From Eremomyces bilateralis CBS 781.70 (taxonomy: Eukaryota): a stretch of DNA of 40,130 nt. Shown here piece by piece: positions 23,349 through 35,421 of the stretch (its first letter is position 1; each line of letters begins with the position of its first letter). Below the pieces are notes generated by a model. The model was not told the DNA's origin. It did not search any database and was given only the letters and a program-made list of their open reading frames with translations. Both the position numbers and the translations under genes were made by a program. The stretch is from NCBI GenBank assembly GCA_010015585.1, contig ML975178.1. The stretch is one strand, 5' to 3'.

Positions 23349-24305
23349 CTACACCGTAGCAGTTTTGAGGTTGTTTGCCTCCACGCCCGATGGAAGGTGA
23401 ATCGGCCCGGTGAATCTCCCTCGAACGCGTTCTTCAACTAGATGGATCCACAGCGTTGGTAACCCGATCTCCGAAAGGTGCAACATCGCTTGGCTCGCTT
23501 CGAGGAAGTGGTCTTTGAATGTCTTCCAGAGCGCCTCGTCCTTCTCGTTGTCGCTCCCCGGTTGTGGGAAGTACGGATCGTTATTGACGAACGCTATGAC
23601 GGCTTGAGTTACCCCGTATCCGTCCAGTGTGATGCTCTTGCAGCGGTCGAAATCTAGGATCCAGATGCTATGGTCGCCAAGGGTCTCCGATTTTAGGACG
23701 GTCTGGAATTCGTCGTCGGTTTTCCTCGGGGGAGCAAGAACGAATTCGACATCATCGGCGTCCAATCGCACCTTCCAATAGAGCTCTGCAAGCCCTTCTG
23801 CCAGCTTTTTCGCGTAGAGTGTCGTATCCAGCCCAAGCTCCTCCATTTGGTCAGCATGAAGAGGATAATTTCGGAGACTGAACGCTTGAGACTCTGAATC
23901 TGGTTTGTGCTGCCGCCGGCAGCCTAGATATGGTCGGATTAAGCAGTCTCGGTTCGCTACCGCCTCCTTGCTGGATGCTCGGATGGACTCAGGGGAGTAC
24001 CGATCGATGATCCTGTCGCGTACTTCCCGAGGGAAATGCGGTATCCGCTCGCTGATGAGGGCGTTGCAGGGTCGATGGCCGTTCGGGAATCTCTCAAGAT
24101 GGTCGTTCCACCAAGGATCGTCGACAGGAACGTAGTTGGGGGAATCCGGGGTGGTGACAAGCGCGGCTTTTAGAGCCTTCTGATGCATCACAAAGCCGTT
24201 GTACAGTGAGCCTTCCGATCCCCCTTCTTCTCTTTTGATGGCGTAATGCGTGTCGTCAGCGGACCAGACGGTCCCGCAGGATCCTTCTCCGATGCAGTAG
24301 TACAT
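23349..24305 (-). CDS. DUF3669-family protein, 318 aa, no intron apparent
   Basis: Motifs recalled for this fungal family: IGEGSCGTVW, LISERIP, NRDCLIRPYLG, FSLRNYPLH.DQM, DADDVEFVLAP, WILDFD.C, AF.NNDPYFP.P. The frame stays open for ~40 codons upstream without an ATG, so the start is uncertain. Confidence 0.8.
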   Translation of the reverse strand: MYYCIGEGSCGTVWSADDTHYAIKREEGGSEGSLYNGFVMHQKALKAALVTTPDSPNYVPVDDPWWNDHLERFPNGHRPCNALISERIPHFPREVRDRIIDRYSPESIRASSKEAVANRDCLIRPYLGCRRQHKPDSESQAFSLRNYPLHADQMEELGLDTTLYAKKLAEGLAELYWKVRLDADDVEFVLAPPRKTDDEFQTVLKSETLGDHSIWILDFDRCKSITLDGYGVTQAVIAFVNNDPYFPQPGSDNEKDEALWKTFKDHFLEASQAMLHLSEIGLPTLWIHLVEERVRGRFTGPIHLPSGVEANNLKTATV

Positions 24306-26072
24306 CTTTCGCGTCGGTTGGGGTATTGATCTTGCAGAATTTCTGCTGCTTAATGATTTGGTCGCAATGATAAACGAGGATGCGTCGATCTCCCCAGCCC
24401 GAGATAACTGGGGAGAGTATTCTCAATTATGGTTCACCTGGGGCGCGTGAACCAAGAAAGTGAGCCGAAATCGCTGACCACACAATCAAATGCTAGAGCG
24501 GACCATTGAAGATTGGCAATTCGAATCCGTCCAGATCTGAAACATCGAGATATCGAGAAATCGTGATTATCGACAAGTCTTCCTCTCCATGTCGTCGAGG
24601 CAATTGTCGTCCTGGCCGAGAACAGGCAGGAGCAACTGCTTCGAGATTTATGGTGAGCGAACGCCCGATCGCCTTTAATCGAGAATTTATTCCACGGTGG
24701 ACCATGAGGGTTAAACCATATCTTGTCCGTGATCGACCGCACTCTTCGTCGGATGAGGACAACTGTACGGAGCACAGTGCCAAGGCATTTACAACTAGCA
24801 CCGATCGACAAGGACACGAAGATGATCGTGGATCGGACAGGTTACCGATGTTGTCTGTTAGGCTCAAACAAACGGGTCCTTGTATGGTGTTTAGAAATTA
24901 GATATGCATAGATAGGTCAACGAAGGTATTAGTACCCGGAAGTACGTAGTTGGGAGTGATTCCTAGCTCCTTTGCATCTTCGATATCGCCAACAGGGCGA
25001 AAATAAGGTTACTTGGCCCCTGGCTGCCCGCAACCATCGAACAGATTTGAGGACAAAGCCGGTCGTCTTGGCTTTTCGGTGTCTTTTATATCGGAGTATG
25101 CGCACCAAAGTGCGCAGTATCTATGGAAGGTTTCCTGTTGACAAGTCAATCGCAACTGAGAATCGGTACCTTGCTGGAATACCACCAAATTTCTAGAGCT
25201 TCGAAGGGTAAGGAGCTTGAAAACTACCGGCTACGACCTTGGTCTTTATGATGCCGCATTCCAAAGCACCCTCAACTCGATAGAGCTCTACGACTCATAC
25301 GGTCCTACACTCTCAGGCGTCGCTATCGGTTCGAACCAGTCCCGGTAGGAAGACATGTGGTGGAACTTGGATCTGTATCTTTCTGCTACTGTTTGCATGA
25401 CAGGTCACAGGAAGCTGGGGACAGGGGTATCCATAAAAGTGGAGAGTTCACAGGAGAGATGGCATGGGAGGAATTGAATCTTCGAAAAGAACTTGTCTTT
25501 TGAACATCAACAACCTCACGTATAGAACACCGGAAGAGACCCGCAAGGACTTCCAAAGCCAGAATCACAATATGTGAAGCCTGCCGGCCAGCTTCAAGCG
25601 TGGTAAGACATACAGCTCAAGCTTGATGGACCGATCTAGTTCATTCGGATGCCTTGCTATCCCAGTATATGTGCAACCAACGCCCGGCTGAATGCCATCC
25701 TCTCCATCGACTCGATCGTATTGGCCGTGATCTTCAAGAGGCGTCGATGCTGAATGAGACCCACGATCAACGAAACGCGCAATCGTGGGATTCTCGAATT
25801 ATCAACAAGTGATTGGTGCCTCATTCCCTCCATGTCTCTCCCCTACCGTTGGTCTGGAGTCTACTTTCGAGAGAGCTGAGTTGATTGTTATTTTCGGGAG
25901 CTCACTGACATGGCCATTCCTCATACTATTTTCCTAAGTCGGAGTTTCCTGCTGTGCGTAGTTGAGTATTCTTAATTCTTAAAGGGTGGCCGTGGTAGTC
26001 TATGGGTTCCGTTCTCTAGAATTTATTTCTCTATTCTCTTGTCCTTATGAACTGCGTTTTGTGGTCTACATA

Positions 26073-27991
26073 ATGTTCCGACAAGCAAGTTGGGCCATAT
26101 CCGGCCTTGTTGGAATCCTTATCTCGATATTCCCCTCCTACCAAGTTACCGACGATATAAATGAGGTTCCCCGTATCGAGACTTCATGCTCCTTCCCCGT
26201 CTTCTCTCTTTCCTTTATCAAGTCATTGCAAACCAGTCATATCTCCAAGGACAACGTAGAAGTGAAAATAAAATTCTCCATCACGCACCCTAGTATACAT
26301 GATGTGGACAACCAGATTGAATATAATGTTACTCTCAAGCCTATGGCCGATTTGTACCCAACCATGTCAGTTATTGATAATGATCAATTAGCGTTCACGA
26401 ATGGAACCGTAGTATCAAGCCGGATTTTGATCCCGAGGGGCGAAACCTTTTTGCTCCAGAGAACCTGGGAACTCGAGGTTATTGTCGGGACGGTGAATGA
26501 CGGTGTGGGTGGCTCTGGGTTCGACAGGGTCTATGTTTCCTTTCAGAATCGGACAAAAGGCGCTCCTGTAGCCATCTTAACAAGGCCGGCGGAGTATTGG
26601 TAAGGAGCCCCATCCTTTGAGCATGCGAGAATAACTCCGAGACGACTAATTCCCTCTTTAGGCACTCAAGGCTGGAAGAAATGACATACACAAACTTCAC
26701 TTTGCCCAACGCTGGCGAGGCTGTCAGACAAGAGTGCGACTGCGAGAAAATGGTATAGATTCCGGGCCGGACATTGCTTCGTCCGACTCCCCCAGGTGGG
26801 CCTCCGGATCCTACTCTTGGAACCTGACGATATCCAGTCAATATTCAAGTCCGCTGGGAAAAGGATCCCGGTGGCGCTCTTCAAGCCCTGGCTGGTACAG
26901 GAGTTGGGTTGTTTCGAACAATAAATACTCAAGGCCAACTAGACTGGGGCTTTAGGCTCAATGCTTTTGGGCGCGTTTCCAGTGCCTTGACAACTGCAGC
27001 TGACGACTTGCCCGTTGCGGCGAAGCTTTACTTTGACGACGCACACTTCACAATGAAGTCTGGTCCTGACAGGAACAACCTCTAGCCCTGGGAATTTGAC
27101 CTGGAGATCTCGTGGAGCGGAACCCGGATTAACACCGACGCGATTGTTACCCAATAAATCGGTCCGGACCTCGGTCGCGTTTGGTCTGAGTTTCGCAGAA
27201 TCCGCTCCGAAGGAAACGCCATCGTTGGATTGGAAGGCGTCCCCCACATCGATGTCTGGTTCCCAGCTGATGTCTCAGCGTCCAACTACCTTAACAATCG
27301 CATCGCTCTGACGTCAATCCGCAGCTGTCGTCCAGATGTCATGGGTCATGAGTATGGCCATCATGTCATGAATTCTCCTATGGACAACGACATCCCAAGC
27401 ACGAGAGGGGAAAGCCACTCCTTTTGCTCGAACACTGAGACCCCCGGGGATGTCCTGAGTGGAAGGTTATGCCACTGCATTTGGCCTCCGAGTCCTTGGT
27501 CTCGATCAGTATGCGAGCCTCAATCTAGCCGCCTACTCCTGTTCAGTCAACCGAGACATGACTTCAGATGAGGGCCGCGTGGCAGCCGGGCTGCTCGATC
27601 TGATGGATGATGAGGGAACCACTCCCGAGTGCGCAGGTGGCAACGATGATCTAGGCCGTTTAGGATGGTGTGATCGCACCCGAGGCACTCTCTTCACGCC
27701 GCGGGCGTCCTAAGAGATTCGCTTGTCGGGCCACAGGTTTCCAGTGTGACTGCTTGGTGGGAGAGGTTAGCGGGGTCACGCAGGGGGCAAACGGGCATAG
27801 CGGATGGGTGGGAAGCCATGCGGTTCAACTACCATCCGCTCGCCCCTTGCAGACTCAGAACCTTCGGGAGGTACTGTCTTACTCTACCTGGCTGGCCTTG
27901 GATAAGCCTTCTGCTTATCAGAACTGACTCTTGGCCACCACTGCCGCCACGATTCACTCCTCGACCGCCTCCATTCCAAGGTAGAGGATAG
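26073..27991 (+). pseudogene. Decayed secreted zinc metallopeptidase (HExxH), mycolysin/M5-like
   Basis: Signal-peptide-like start at ATG 26073. Intron GTAAGG...CTAAT...TAG (26600-26661) puts exon 1 in frame with HEYGH at 27347-27361. Downstream S*VEGYA and DEGRVAAGLLDLMD. In-frame stops at 26756, 26825, 27083, 27155 and 27456; frameshifts near 27445 and 27705. Confidence 0.75.
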
Positions 27992-28607
27992 TGATTGTAG
28001 GTTAGGGACAATATAGAGTAACTGAGGGGCGGAAAGAAAGTTACAACAGTTATAATCCGGCCGACTAAAAAGAAAAAGAGAGACATGTTTCCTAACGGGT
28101 AGGCAAATATTGATACCTGTACGTCAAGGGGAAGCCATATCTCAATGACTCCGATACTCCGCGTATATTCCTTCATGCATGTTTATTCGCCGTGATGCTC
28201 GAGCAAAGAACAAATCCGAAATAGTACCATCCTAAAAGCTGCTCCCAACCCAAAAAAGGCCATTATCTGCCTGTACTCCTTGGTTCTATCATGGTCATGT
28301 GTCGTGGAATCCACTATCTCCTTATAATCATCATCGAGATAGCCTTCTCCATGTGATAGGCAGTCAAACCAATCCTTATATTGAATAGTAGACATCTTCT
28401 TTATTTCCAAGTGCGTTTTTCAATAATCTGCACACAGACGCACATCCCACCGCTGCAATCCCCATCGAAAGTACATGATGGCCGATTCCGACCCGCCCTA
28501 GGCATCACAAGATGCACCCAAGGTCAATGATTGGGAAGGTAAGTTACGAGTATAATCCGTGAACCAGGGGTTGAAGTCGAGTACTAACGGAGTTCTTCAG
28601 TTGCAGC

Positions 28608-29707: not shown

Positions 29708-31585
29708 ATGGTGAGATCAGTTCTTCGGGGAGCCTGTTTCCGGCCATCTCTGGCCAGGGCAGTTCCAATTGCTCGGAGCATCCAGTAAGTTCCTCCGATT
29801 CTCGGAGCTGTTCTGCTCGTCAAGACTGACTTTTGCCGCTATTATCATAGGAGAGCCTCATTCTCGAGTAGTATACACTACAGAACGTCCGATGACCAGG
29901 CCTTGAATAAAATCAGCGGAAATGTCACCTTACCGAAGGCGCAGGGTGCCTCGCAGGCAATGCTGTATGCCACGGGCTTCACGGAAGCAGATATGCATAA
30001 GGCGCAAGTGGGAATCGTGTCCAATTGGTTCTCAGGGAATCCGTGCAACATGCATCTTATGACTCTGAACGATAAGGTGAAGGAGGGAGTGCAGAAAGCT
30101 GGTCTGATGCCCATGCAGTTCAATACAATTGGCGTCAGCGATGCTATTTCGATGGGGACGAAAGGGATGAGGTACTCCCTGCAATCCCGAGACGTCATCG
30201 CAGACTCGATTGAGACGATGATGTGTGGCCAATGGTACGATTCGAACATCTCAATCCCTGGTTGCGACAAGAATATGCCGGGTGTGGTCATGGCCATGGG
30301 CCGTGTGAATCGACCATCGATCATGGTATATGGAGGCACCATCGCTCCCGGATGCGCGAAGACCCGGGAAAACGAGCAGATAGATATCGTCTCCGCATTC
30401 CAATCCTACGGACAGTTCCTCTCCGGAGAGATCAATGAGGAATCCCGCTTCGACATTATCCGCAACGCGTGTCCTGGACAAGGTGCCTGCGGTGGTATGT
30501 ACACTGCTAACACCATGGCTACCGCAATCGAAACCATCGGCCTTTCGCTCCCGGGCTCGTCCTCTAACCCTGCCGCATCCGCCGCGAAGCAGCTTGAATG
30601 CTTGGCAGCAGGCAGCGCGATTAGGAACCTCCTGAAGGAAGATATCCGACCCAAAGACATCATCACCCGCCAGGCGCTTGAAGACGCAATGGTCATCACC
30701 ATGATCCTCGGTGGCTCCACCAATCTGGTCCTGCATCTCATCGCGATGGCAGATAGCGTGGGCATCAAACTCACTATCGACGACTTCCAATCCGTATCCG
30801 ACCGCACCCCCTATCTCGCCGACCTCAAGCCATCCGGCAAGTACGTCATGGCCGACCTCTTCGACCTCGGCGGCACGCCAGCCATCCATAAGTTCCTCCT
30901 CAAAGAAGGTTTAATCAGCGGCTCCGGCATCACCGTGACGGGTAAGACACTAAAAGAGAACGTCGCCAACGCACGCGACCTCCCCTCCGACCAACAAATC
31001 ATCCGCCCGCTAAGCAACCCCATCAAACCCACTGGACACATCACGATCCTCCGCGGGTCCCTCGCACCGGGCGGCTCCGTCGGGAAGATCACCGGCAAGG
31101 AAGGCACGACGTTCGAAGGCACCGCGAAGGTCTACGACGCCGAAGACGACTTCATCGCGGCGCTGGAGCGCAACGAGCTGAAGAAGGGTGAGAAGACCAT
31201 CGTCATCATCCGCTACGAGGGGCCGAAAGGCGGGCCCGGCATGCCTGAGATGTTGAAGCCGTCGAGCGCGATCATGGGCGCCGGTCTGGGCAACGACGTG
31301 GCGCTGATCACGGACGGGCGGTTTAGTGGTGGGAGCCACGGGTTCTTGATCGGACACGTTGTGCCGGAGGCGCAGGAGGGTGGACCCATCGCGCTGGTGA
31401 AGGACGGTGACGTGATCGAGATCAACGCGGAGACGCGAGAGGTGAATCTGAAGGTGGATAAGGAGGAGCTGGACAGGAGAAGGCAGTTGTGGACGACGCC
31501 GAAGTTGAAGTATGAGAAGGGGACGTTGTATAAATATGCGAAGAGCGTCCAGGATGCGAGCCATGGCTGCATTACGGATGGCTGA
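29708..31585 (+). CDS. ILV3: Mitochondrial dihydroxy-acid dehydratase (IlvD/Edd family), ~603 aa; exons 29708-29784 and 29851-31585
   Basis: [53 protein letters not shown]. An upstream Arg-rich presequence exon ([18 protein letters not shown]) is joined in frame by intron GTAAGT...ACTGAC...TAG (29785-29850). Confidence 0.97.
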
Positions 31586-34956: not shown

Positions 34957-35421
34957 ATGTGCCGCCCCATTACCTACCACTACTCCTGCGGCTGCATCCA
35001 CAAACGCGTCCGTCACTGCCTCTCCGGCTGCGCATACCACTCCCACCTTGCGACCTCCCCGGAACCGCACCCCCATGTCATCCCCGCGGGCCCGGACCCG
35101 CTAGAGCACGTGGACAAGATCGTGCGCGCTGACTTTTGCGCGACATGCGAGCAGTTAGAGGAGGAGGGGTTCTTCGAGGAGCCGAGGAGGGTGGTATGTG
35201 GGTATGTGGAGAGGGTGGGGGATTGGAAGGGGTGGCAGGATTGGAGTTTGAGGGGGAGGCGGGNNNNNNNNNNNNNNNNNNNNNNNNNNNNNNNNNNNNN
35301 NNNNNNNNNNNNNNNNNNNNNNNNNNNNNNGGGGGATGGGGAGAGGGAGATGAGGTGGCCGAGAAGAGTGATGTTTGCGGTGATGGCTTGGGTACCGACA
35401 GGGAGATGTGGGCGTGTCTAG
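34957..35421 (+). CDS. Small Cys/His-rich hypothetical protein; 3' end uncertain because of the assembly gap
   Basis: Good start context (CAAACCATG) after a pyrimidine-rich leader. MC..ITYHYSCGC.H...HC...C and a distal C..C are typical of small fungal putative Zn-binding proteins. Confidence 0.6.
   Translation: MCRPITYHYSCGCIHKRVRHCLSGCAYHSHLATSPEPHPHVIPAGPDPLEHVDKIVRADFCATCEQLEEEGFFEEPRRVVCGYVERVGDWKGWQDWSLRGRRXXXXXXXXXXXXXXXXXXXXXXXGDGEREMRWPRRVMFAVMAWVPTGRCGRV
35264..35330. other. Assembly gap (67 N)
   Basis: Run of n characters flanked by G-runs. Confidence 0.99.

Follow-up and report, generated by a model that had tools for sequence, protein, structure and literature searches.

A probable unitary pseudogene of a rare fungal zinc metallopeptidase family in Eremomyces bilateralis

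Fungalysin (M36), deuterolysin (M35) and the M43 enzymes are fungal zinc metalloproteases with an HExxH motif. In thermolysin, 20 residues lie between the second histidine of this motif and the glutamate ligand. Table 3 of PMC3268031 assigns mycolysin, whose type enzyme is UniProt P20910 (PMC7760664), to subclan E of clan MA, and a 2014 MEROPS-based table of clan MA gives the mycolysin family, M5, in two bacterial phyla and no eukaryotic phyla (PMC3890501, Table 2). Here we describe a locus at positions 26073-27991 of a 40,130-nucleotide stretch of DNA from Eremomyces bilateralis CBS 781.70 (assembly GCA_010015585.1, contig ML975178.1), the whole of which is called the window below. The locus is very probably a unitary pseudogene. 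It belongs to a rare fungal family of zinc metallopeptidases, putatively secreted or anchored in the membrane, that is distantly related to the mycolysin type; outside the fungi, the nearest named proteins are mycolysin-type proteins of Streptomyces. Its surroundings are fungal, as judged from GT-AG introns and flanking genes.

Structure of the gene and its disabling lesions

The gene comprises two exons separated by a short intron, with the features listed below. Homologous proteins are given P numbers, and the three public sequencing runs that contain the stretch are called X1, X2 and X3.

26073-27991, plus strand: the two-exon gene, whole locus; all pieces are colinear on single homologues.
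26073-26599, plus strand: exon 1, intact, with the ATG at 26073 and 175 codons plus 2 bases; zero stops over 527 bases.
26073-26599, plus strand: exon 1 product, a hydrophobic N-terminal segment (putative signal peptide or signal anchor) followed by a predicted all-beta domain (P0006 model and alignment).
26600-26661, plus strand: spliceosomal intron of 62 nucleotides, phase 2, GT..AG (sequence, joint in an X3 contig, and match of P0006 at the junction).
26662-27991, plus strand: exon 2, a decayed peptidase unit of predicted thermolysin fold (colinear tblastn matches of P0021, P0003, P0006 and P0007).
26663-27445, 27447-27704 and 27707-27988, plus strand: frame segments of exon 2, followed by the stop codon TAG at 27989-27991.
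27347-27361, plus strand: HEYGH, the putative zinc-binding and catalytic motif, its codons undamaged.
27462-27482, plus strand: EGYATAF, a helix carrying an invariant glutamate proposed, by inference, as the third zinc ligand.
27570-27608, plus strand: EGRVAAGLLDLMD, forming a helix that is conserved in the C-terminal lobe; its motif recurs in the Streptomyces protein P0035.

In the intron, CTAAT at 26646-26650 resembles a branch site, the donor reads GTAAGG, and the acceptor AG ends at 26661. Removal of the intron joins TG/G to give ...PAEYW/HSRLEEM, which matches PAEYWHTWLSEL of the full-length homologue P0006 without gaps. Relatives whose open reading frames (ORFs) were called from long contigs (P0003, P0021 and P0022) start a few residues past the exon junction, an indirect hint on the intron position. 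Exon 1 is part of the same gene because residues 1-178 of P0006 map onto 26073-26600 by tblastn, and the start MF... is common to exon 1, P0006 and P0007.

Downstream of the intron, one frame, with stops, extends to DVMGHEYGHHVM, which contains HEYGH; past a first frameshift the homology continues in the next frame, with VEGYATAF and EGRVAAGLLDLMD, and past a second it is again in the first frame, reading VLRDS...WWERL...AMRFNY up to the TAG at 27989-27991. When P0021 was placed on the window by tblastn, its residues 1-258, 246-357 and 346-432 fell in this order on 26672-27445, 27408-27743 and 27707-27961, and the read-through is 60% identical to P0021 over 430 columns. The family motifs HE.GH, H.FC, EGYA.AF, EGRVAAG..D..D, WW.RL and AM.(F/Y)NY are all found, in order, in the read-through with its stops masked as X.

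A preliminary description of the window, made from its letters alone, had proposed a zinc-metallopeptidase pseudogene with a genuine fungal intron in this place. Every coordinate and peptide that it gave was right, each feature being found where it had been placed, and its fragments proved colinear on single homologues (tblastn of P0021 and P0006). The proposal is borne out by this colinearity, by the removal of the 62-nucleotide intron in an X3 contig, and by the lesions, all of which lie in exon 2 (five premature stops and two one-base frameshifts, seven in total), with none in exon 1.

26756-26758, plus strand: premature stop 1, TAG; the sole translatable product is cut off here, at 207 residues.
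26825-26827, plus strand: premature stop 2, TGA; a sense column in homologues, and the X3 contig agrees.
27083-27085, plus strand: premature stop 3, TAG; a sense column in homologues, and the X3 contig agrees.
27155-27157, plus strand: premature stop 4, TAA; a sense column in homologues, and the X3 contig agrees.
27441-27449, plus strand: frameshift 1, a one-base length change in the CCCCCGGGG (C5G4) run; the frame of the high-scoring segment pairs changes between 27408 and 27445, and the X3 contig is gapless.
27456-27458, plus strand: premature stop 5, TGA, just 5' of VEGYATAF; the column is aromatic in homologues.
27700-27707, plus strand: frameshift 2, LFTPR preceding and VLRDS following a length change of one base (tblastn); the X3 contig is gapless.

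In an alignment with eight homologues, all five stops fall on columns occupied by a sense residue, and all five are base substitutions, not length errors. Repeat-induced point mutation (RIP) was considered as their source and rejected. The TpA/ApT and (CpA+TpG)/(ApC+GpT) indices are 0.62 and 1.21 in the gene, against 0.63 and 1.22 in the whole window, and because the gene thus sits at the window average, RIP is not the cause of the lesions.

The sequencing runs bear both on the lesions and on the intron. X1 and X2 are DNA runs of one sample, possibly the source of the assembly, and X3 derives from another sample and another study. Four X3 contigs lie on 26000-28050 (26000-26185, 26260-26513, 26535-26598 joined to 26661-27247, and 27220-28050), and they show 0 differing letters and 0 gaps relative to the window, the 7 lesion sites included. 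Errors in the assembly from which the window comes therefore do not explain the five stops and the two indels. One X3 contig skips exactly 62 nucleotides with GT..AG ends, spliced at 26599/26662; X1 and X2 retain the intron. Since this joint is the predicted intron, the disabled gene seems still to be transcribed and its intron spliced, and thus expressed. Moreover, the X3 contigs are continuous over 26661-27247 and 27220-28050, and hence no further splicing rids the message of its stops. A fourth run, X4 (2025, assembly-like, with the same species label as X1), gave no match to 26000-28050, which is no proof of absence; the locus may be missing from it, divergent, or filtered out.

These data also bear on the reading that the gene is functional, its stops and frameshifts being assembly errors or being spliced out. 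Frameshift 1 does lie in the C5G4 homopolymer run, and sequencing errors are typical of such sites. However, contigs from an independent sample and study agree with the window at every lesion, they pass unbroken through exon 2 with no extra intron, and the five stops are substitutions; we consider a functional gene extremely improbable.

The spliced message can be translated for 207 residues only (175 + 1 + 31), and because translation ends there, no peptidase is made from the locus. The copy is recently disabled, and nothing enzymatic comes from it in this genome. What could still be made is the hydrophobic N-terminus with the beta domain, and a shortened gene, whose spliced transcript encodes a 207-residue protein with a retained role, would account for the uneven damage (exon 1 with 527 bases and 0 lesions, exon 2 with 1330 bases and 7) in a locus that is apparently transcribed and spliced. 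The lesion rate of exon 2, however, predicts about 2.8 lesions in exon 1, and finding zero then has a P of about 0.06, short of significance. Within the protein, the exon-1 domain is also the least conserved part, with 18-26% identity to four full-length homologues, and its fold prediction reached a predicted local distance difference test (pLDDT) value of only 46. In addition, nonsense-mediated decay typically targets transcripts in which a stop comes early. Taken together, these points make a shortened gene improbable.

The fungal family and its predicted peptidase fold

The stop-masked frame-2 read-through (P0002; stops entered as X) was compared by phmmer with 1,835,955,588 representative proteins. 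Matches numbered 10 at E<=1e-3, 6 at E<=1e-10 and 4 at E<=1e-30, the top four having E values of 3.3e-62, 3.2e-41, 5.6e-40 and 4.7e-35. The best of them, P0003, is 47% identical to the read-through, and its E value of 3.3e-62 among 1.84 billion proteins means that the similarity is beyond chance. The tenth, P0012, is a protein of 1726 residues that aligns in six short stretches on query residues 20-72. With P0006 as the query, 11 matches were found among 8000 scored candidates, and a profile of 16 sequences (A1) gave 18 matches at E<=0.01. A protein search in the "longer" length class gave no matches.

Only two relatives bear the name of a fungus, namely KAI9764991.1 from a Geoglossum simile metagenome-assembled genome (573 residues) and KAK4182982.1 from Podospora australis (616 residues). 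Both are annotated "hypothetical protein", and the remaining relatives are Logan, JGI and ENA proteins. Intact members are 573-627 residues long. The locus in the window belongs to this fungal HEYGH/EGYATAF family on the basis of significant, colinear similarity along its whole length, the N-terminal exon included. Intact homologues elsewhere in fungi, as anticipated in the preliminary description, thus exist in Geoglossum and Podospora and among environmental sequences. The family is also as little described as had been supposed, with no Pfam or NCBIfam match and with named members that are only hypothetical proteins; full-text literature searches gave no paper with a title or abstract on this type of protease in fungi. 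The ORF pieces of the window gave nothing at the Pfam threshold, and for a natural 99-residue ORF piece the ESM Atlas offered weak hints (0.92 hypothetical protein, 0.91 zinc-binding metallopeptidase family).

Conservation within the family is concentrated around the putative active site. All 25 aligned homologues share H407, E408, G410 and H411, then E445, G446 and A448, and then E481, A485, D490 and D493 (P0006 numbering). A further invariant histidine, about 18 residues past HE.GH, is followed by a nearly invariant cysteine in the 25 sequences.

To describe the fold, we used an AlphaFold2 model of P0006 computed from a 25-row alignment. Its mean pLDDT is 75, and most ten-residue blocks of residues 230-570 lie at 85-96. 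The model comprises an N-terminal helix (residues 3-25), beta strands (59-172), a low-confidence linker (173-227) and a peptidase unit whose first lobe is rich in beta structure and whose second is helical. HEYGH sits on a helix at 402-417 and the invariant E445 on the next helix, at 439-456. VIA-align superposed model residues 236-571 on residues 4-316 of thermolysin (1kei) with a Z score of 17.7 and a root-mean-square deviation (rmsd) of 3.1 A over 251 residues. Rows 1-19 of that search are all M4 enzymes, and M1 aminopeptidases and LTA4 hydrolases come next, with Z scores of about 13. Foldseek against the Protein Data Bank (PDB) gave a probability of 1.00 for 1npc, 7skm_C, 4ger_A, 1esp and 1kei. 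In this model of a homologue, the peptidase unit is predicted to have the two-lobe thermolysin fold, and superposition on the whole of thermolysin points to a thermolysin-fold gluzincin. The glutamate of EGYATAF, on the helix where the third ligand of thermolysin-type enzymes is found, would most likely supply the third zinc ligand, as in gluzincins (clan MA(E)).

Likeness to the thermolysin family M4 (thermolysin, aureolysin, ProA and LasB) thus extends across the mature enzyme, the two-lobe folds superposing with Z scores of 15-17.7 and rmsd values of 3.0-3.8 A over 239-262 residues, and in both families HExxH is followed downstream by a helix bearing a glutamate. The sequences nevertheless share only 8-13% identity, and M4 models are absent from the 11 Pfam families that reached E<=1 with 25 members. 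The spacing differs as well. In the fungal family, about 34 residues lie between the second histidine and the candidate glutamate ligand, the extra spacer residues being a conserved loop that holds the invariant histidine and the nearly invariant cysteine.

Other zinc peptidases with HExxH were compared and rejected. No member reached the Pfam threshold for M35, M36 or M43, and the best matches did not fall in these families, as the preliminary description had allowed that they might; the only sign of them among 25 members was Peptidase_M43 at E 0.21 in one (12 bits versus a cut-off of 23). Moreover, M35, M36 and M43 are widespread in fungi, whereas the family described here is very rare. A scan of genome contigs yielded 13 loci confirmed by tblastn (L001-L013), 12 of them from Micromonosporaceae, which we treated as motif-driven false positives. 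L001, the only one of the 13 inspected, is a Zn_peptidase (PF04228, putative neutral zinc metallopeptidase, E 2.5e-84), which is another family, and matches only query residues 363-466. The Micromonosporaceae loci were recovered because PF04228 Zn_peptidase has the word AHEYGHH in common with the family. A back-translated AHEYGHH pattern draws in PF04228 peptidases and is a trap for motif-based searches of the family.

Relation to mycolysin-type proteins and possible origins

The preliminary description had called the locus mycolysin-like from its motif order, HExxH, then W.EG(F/Y)A, then EG.VA..L.D. Profile A1 matched a Streptomyces protein of 796 residues, P0035, at E 1.4e-12, and the precomputed Pfam assignment of P0035 is PF27334. 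Comparison of A1 with P0035 by hhalign gave a probability of 98.2% and E 3.6e-14 over 266 columns that cover the beta lobe and the catalytic helices, and comparison with a "metalloprotease" of S. viridifaciens, P0050 (376 residues), gave 97.1% and E 6.6e-11. P0035 reads HEIGH, then AWIEGFADF, then VEGRVAGALRDLID. In the ESM Atlas, it falls in a 55-member actinobacterial cluster that is automatically named Mycolysin (0.98, 238/256 features), in which PF27334 Mycolysin_N is found in 93% of members and PF27283 Mycolysin_M in 38%.

Family M5 (type: Streptomyces cacaoi) and the fungal proteins can be compared through these sequences. The order HExxH, aromatic-x-EG(F/Y)A, EG(R/N)VA..L.DL recurs in P0035, P0050 and P0051, and profile-level homology, via P0035 and P0050, spans the whole peptidase unit. 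Fungal and bacterial proteins are, however, only 20-30% identical. The N-terminal anchor, the beta domain and the intron were observed only in the window and four full-length relatives (two of them the named fungal proteins), and the fungal proteins have extra conserved cysteine pairs and a WW.RL...YNYYP tail. The motif order given above holds in significant Streptomyces profile matches; membership in M5 is unproven.

Further bacterial relatives were found on plasmids and in metagenomes. With P0035 as the tblastn query against 72,556 plasmid records, 12 records matched, 10 from Streptomyces and 2 from Embleya, and P0050 is encoded on one of them. The Streptomyces relatives L027 (S. viridifaciens pKVP1) and L032 (an S. 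californicus plasmid) lie on large linear replicons; thioredoxin and DsbD-like genes and a tyrosinase neighbour L027, and a papain-like cysteine protease neighbours L032. The relative at L028 carries a fused ricin-type lectin domain. A metagenome scan returned 12 loci. Three of these, L014, L015 and L016, are relatives, whereas the matches of L017-L025 are limited to the residues around HExxH. L014 (2969-5299) and L015 (2957-5353) have bacterial neighbours and unbroken ORFs of 776 and 798 residues, and their proteins have even the C-terminal FW..L and YNYM motifs in common with the family. Neither has a Pfam match at threshold, and both carry a long, predicted-helical C-terminal extension past the peptidase unit. 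The two appear to form another, uncharacterised subfamily in bacteria.

The reading that we prefer for the locus can now be set out. Intact members of the family consist of an N-terminal hydrophobic helix, a beta-sandwich domain (encoded by exon 1 in the window), a low-confidence linker and a two-lobed peptidase unit of thermolysin fold, in which HEYGH would give two zinc histidines and the catalytic glutamate and the glutamate of EGYATAF the third ligand. In this genome, five point-mutation stops and two one-base indels, arising without RIP, have inactivated the peptidase unit, and transcription and intron splicing apparently persist in a message whose translation halts after 207 residues.

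A number of points count against parts of this reading. The Pfam threshold was reached by 0 of 8 and 0 of 25 family members, and NCBIfam searches of the window's ORF pieces and of the homologues gave nothing at threshold. PDB sequence searches returned nothing for the read-through and, for the profile, only DXS at E 2.4, a chance match. The fold is that of a homologue, P0006, and not of the window's own product; its best matches are M4 enzymes, and no mycolysin entry is among the PDB rows listed by the sequence and fold searches. Zinc ligands, protease activity and secretion or anchoring are putative. Of the proteins listed, P0035 alone has an entry in the precomputed Pfam column, which is blank for the rest, both named fungal proteins among them. 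Because the fungal proteins lack such an entry and the link runs via P0035, we call the family mycolysin-like and not a member of M5; its distant relationship to the mycolysin-type proteins of actinobacteria has indirect support, and its M5 affinity is putative. Among sampled Actinomycetes genomes, 0 of 201 had a protein of the P0035 type at E<=1e-8, and the statement of the preliminary description that such peptidases are mainly bacterial therefore rests on few sequences. Finally, the X3 contigs come from a single run of a single study at depth 2-6, they are contigs and not reads, and the label RNA is a guess that has only the spliced contig in its favour.

The origin of the family was considered with quick maximum-likelihood trees of 28 rows by 400 columns and of 27 rows. 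The 28-row tree, rooted merely at its midpoint, leaves out the near-duplicates P0004, P0023, P0024, P0031, P0033 and P0034; three of its rows have very long branches, half of them (14 of 28) lack a taxon, and bacteria are thinly sampled. Both named fungal proteins share a clade of 9 rows with the window (Shimodaira-Hasegawa-like approximate likelihood ratio test support 99), in which the window is nearest to P0021, and the 27-row tree agrees. Of the eight named actinobacterial rows, seven cluster separately (starred, 99), with the eighth, L033, and P0036 beside that cluster on long branches. The L014/L015 pair is the closest bacterial neighbour of the eukaryote-like set, with a support of 84 that is not starred.

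As an addition to the preferred explanation and no replacement for it, an old bacterium-to-fungus transfer of a mycolysin-like protease may be proposed, in which the N-terminal exon and the intron were gained later and the gene is now being lost lineage by lineage. The bacterial relatives occur in two very different settings (Streptomyces and Embleya replicons, and two metagenome contigs), the family is extremely rare (10, 11 and 18 matches in three protein searches, only 2 with a fungal name), and the midpoint-rooted quick tree has the fungal and eukaryote-like rows on one side with L014/L015 adjoining. The presence of M5 in 2 bacterial and 0 eukaryotic phyla in the 2014 table (PMC3890501) points the same way. 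On the other hand, the tree is unrooted and was made by a quick method, with long branches and half of its rows (14/28) without a taxon, and the branch that joins L014/L015 to the eukaryote-like set is among its unstarred ones (84). Fungal-bacterial identity of 20-30% fits ancient vertical descent with many losses equally well. We thus regard a transfer as possible but somewhat doubtful. It is compatible with the tree, and ancient descent with repeated loss, of which the pseudogene itself is one case, fits as well. The claim of the preliminary description that the gene gained an intron holds only if the transfer is true.

A fuller version, which we put forward only tentatively and hold to be unlikely, is that a mycolysin-type, thermolysin-fold protease entered an ancestor of the filamentous ascomycetes from bacteria, gained a membrane or secretion leader, the beta domain and the intron, and survives in a handful of lineages, the copy in the window being lost while it is transcribed and spliced. 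If true, this would provide the first eukaryotic branch of MEROPS family M5, or a new sister family. Overall, the earlier interpretation stands as to the pseudogene, its intron, the intact fungal homologues, the little-described family and the mycolysin-like motif order, and it is unproven as to M5 membership and bacterium-to-fungus transfer.

Genomic setting and meaning for the family

The locus lies among intact, ordinary genes and not in a repeat-rich or AT-rich region. PrpD and SDR genes flank it, together with the following neighbours.

23352-24422, minus strand: upstream neighbour, a DUF3669 protein in an unbroken 357-codon frame (E 4.3e-25).
29789-31582: a dihydroxy-acid dehydratase.

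Elsewhere in the window, an assembly gap of 67 N at 35264-35330 lies in ORF-rich sequence near a Pro/Ser/Thr-rich frame. A scan of the window for bacterial promoters and terminators gave counts at shuffle level and is irrelevant to a eukaryote.

Recognition of the family would add a eukaryotic, intron-bearing branch to the thermolysin/mycolysin gluzincins, and its fungal members would be a new seed set for protease databases. They would also constitute a small, tractable case in which bacterium-to-fungus transfer may be weighed against old vertical inheritance with massive loss. Loss can be seen under way in the window, with a recently disabled copy that is apparently still expressed in a gene-dense region. 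The practical meaning for the organism is modest, and the value of the locus lies in its being a pointer to an undescribed eukaryotic protease branch.

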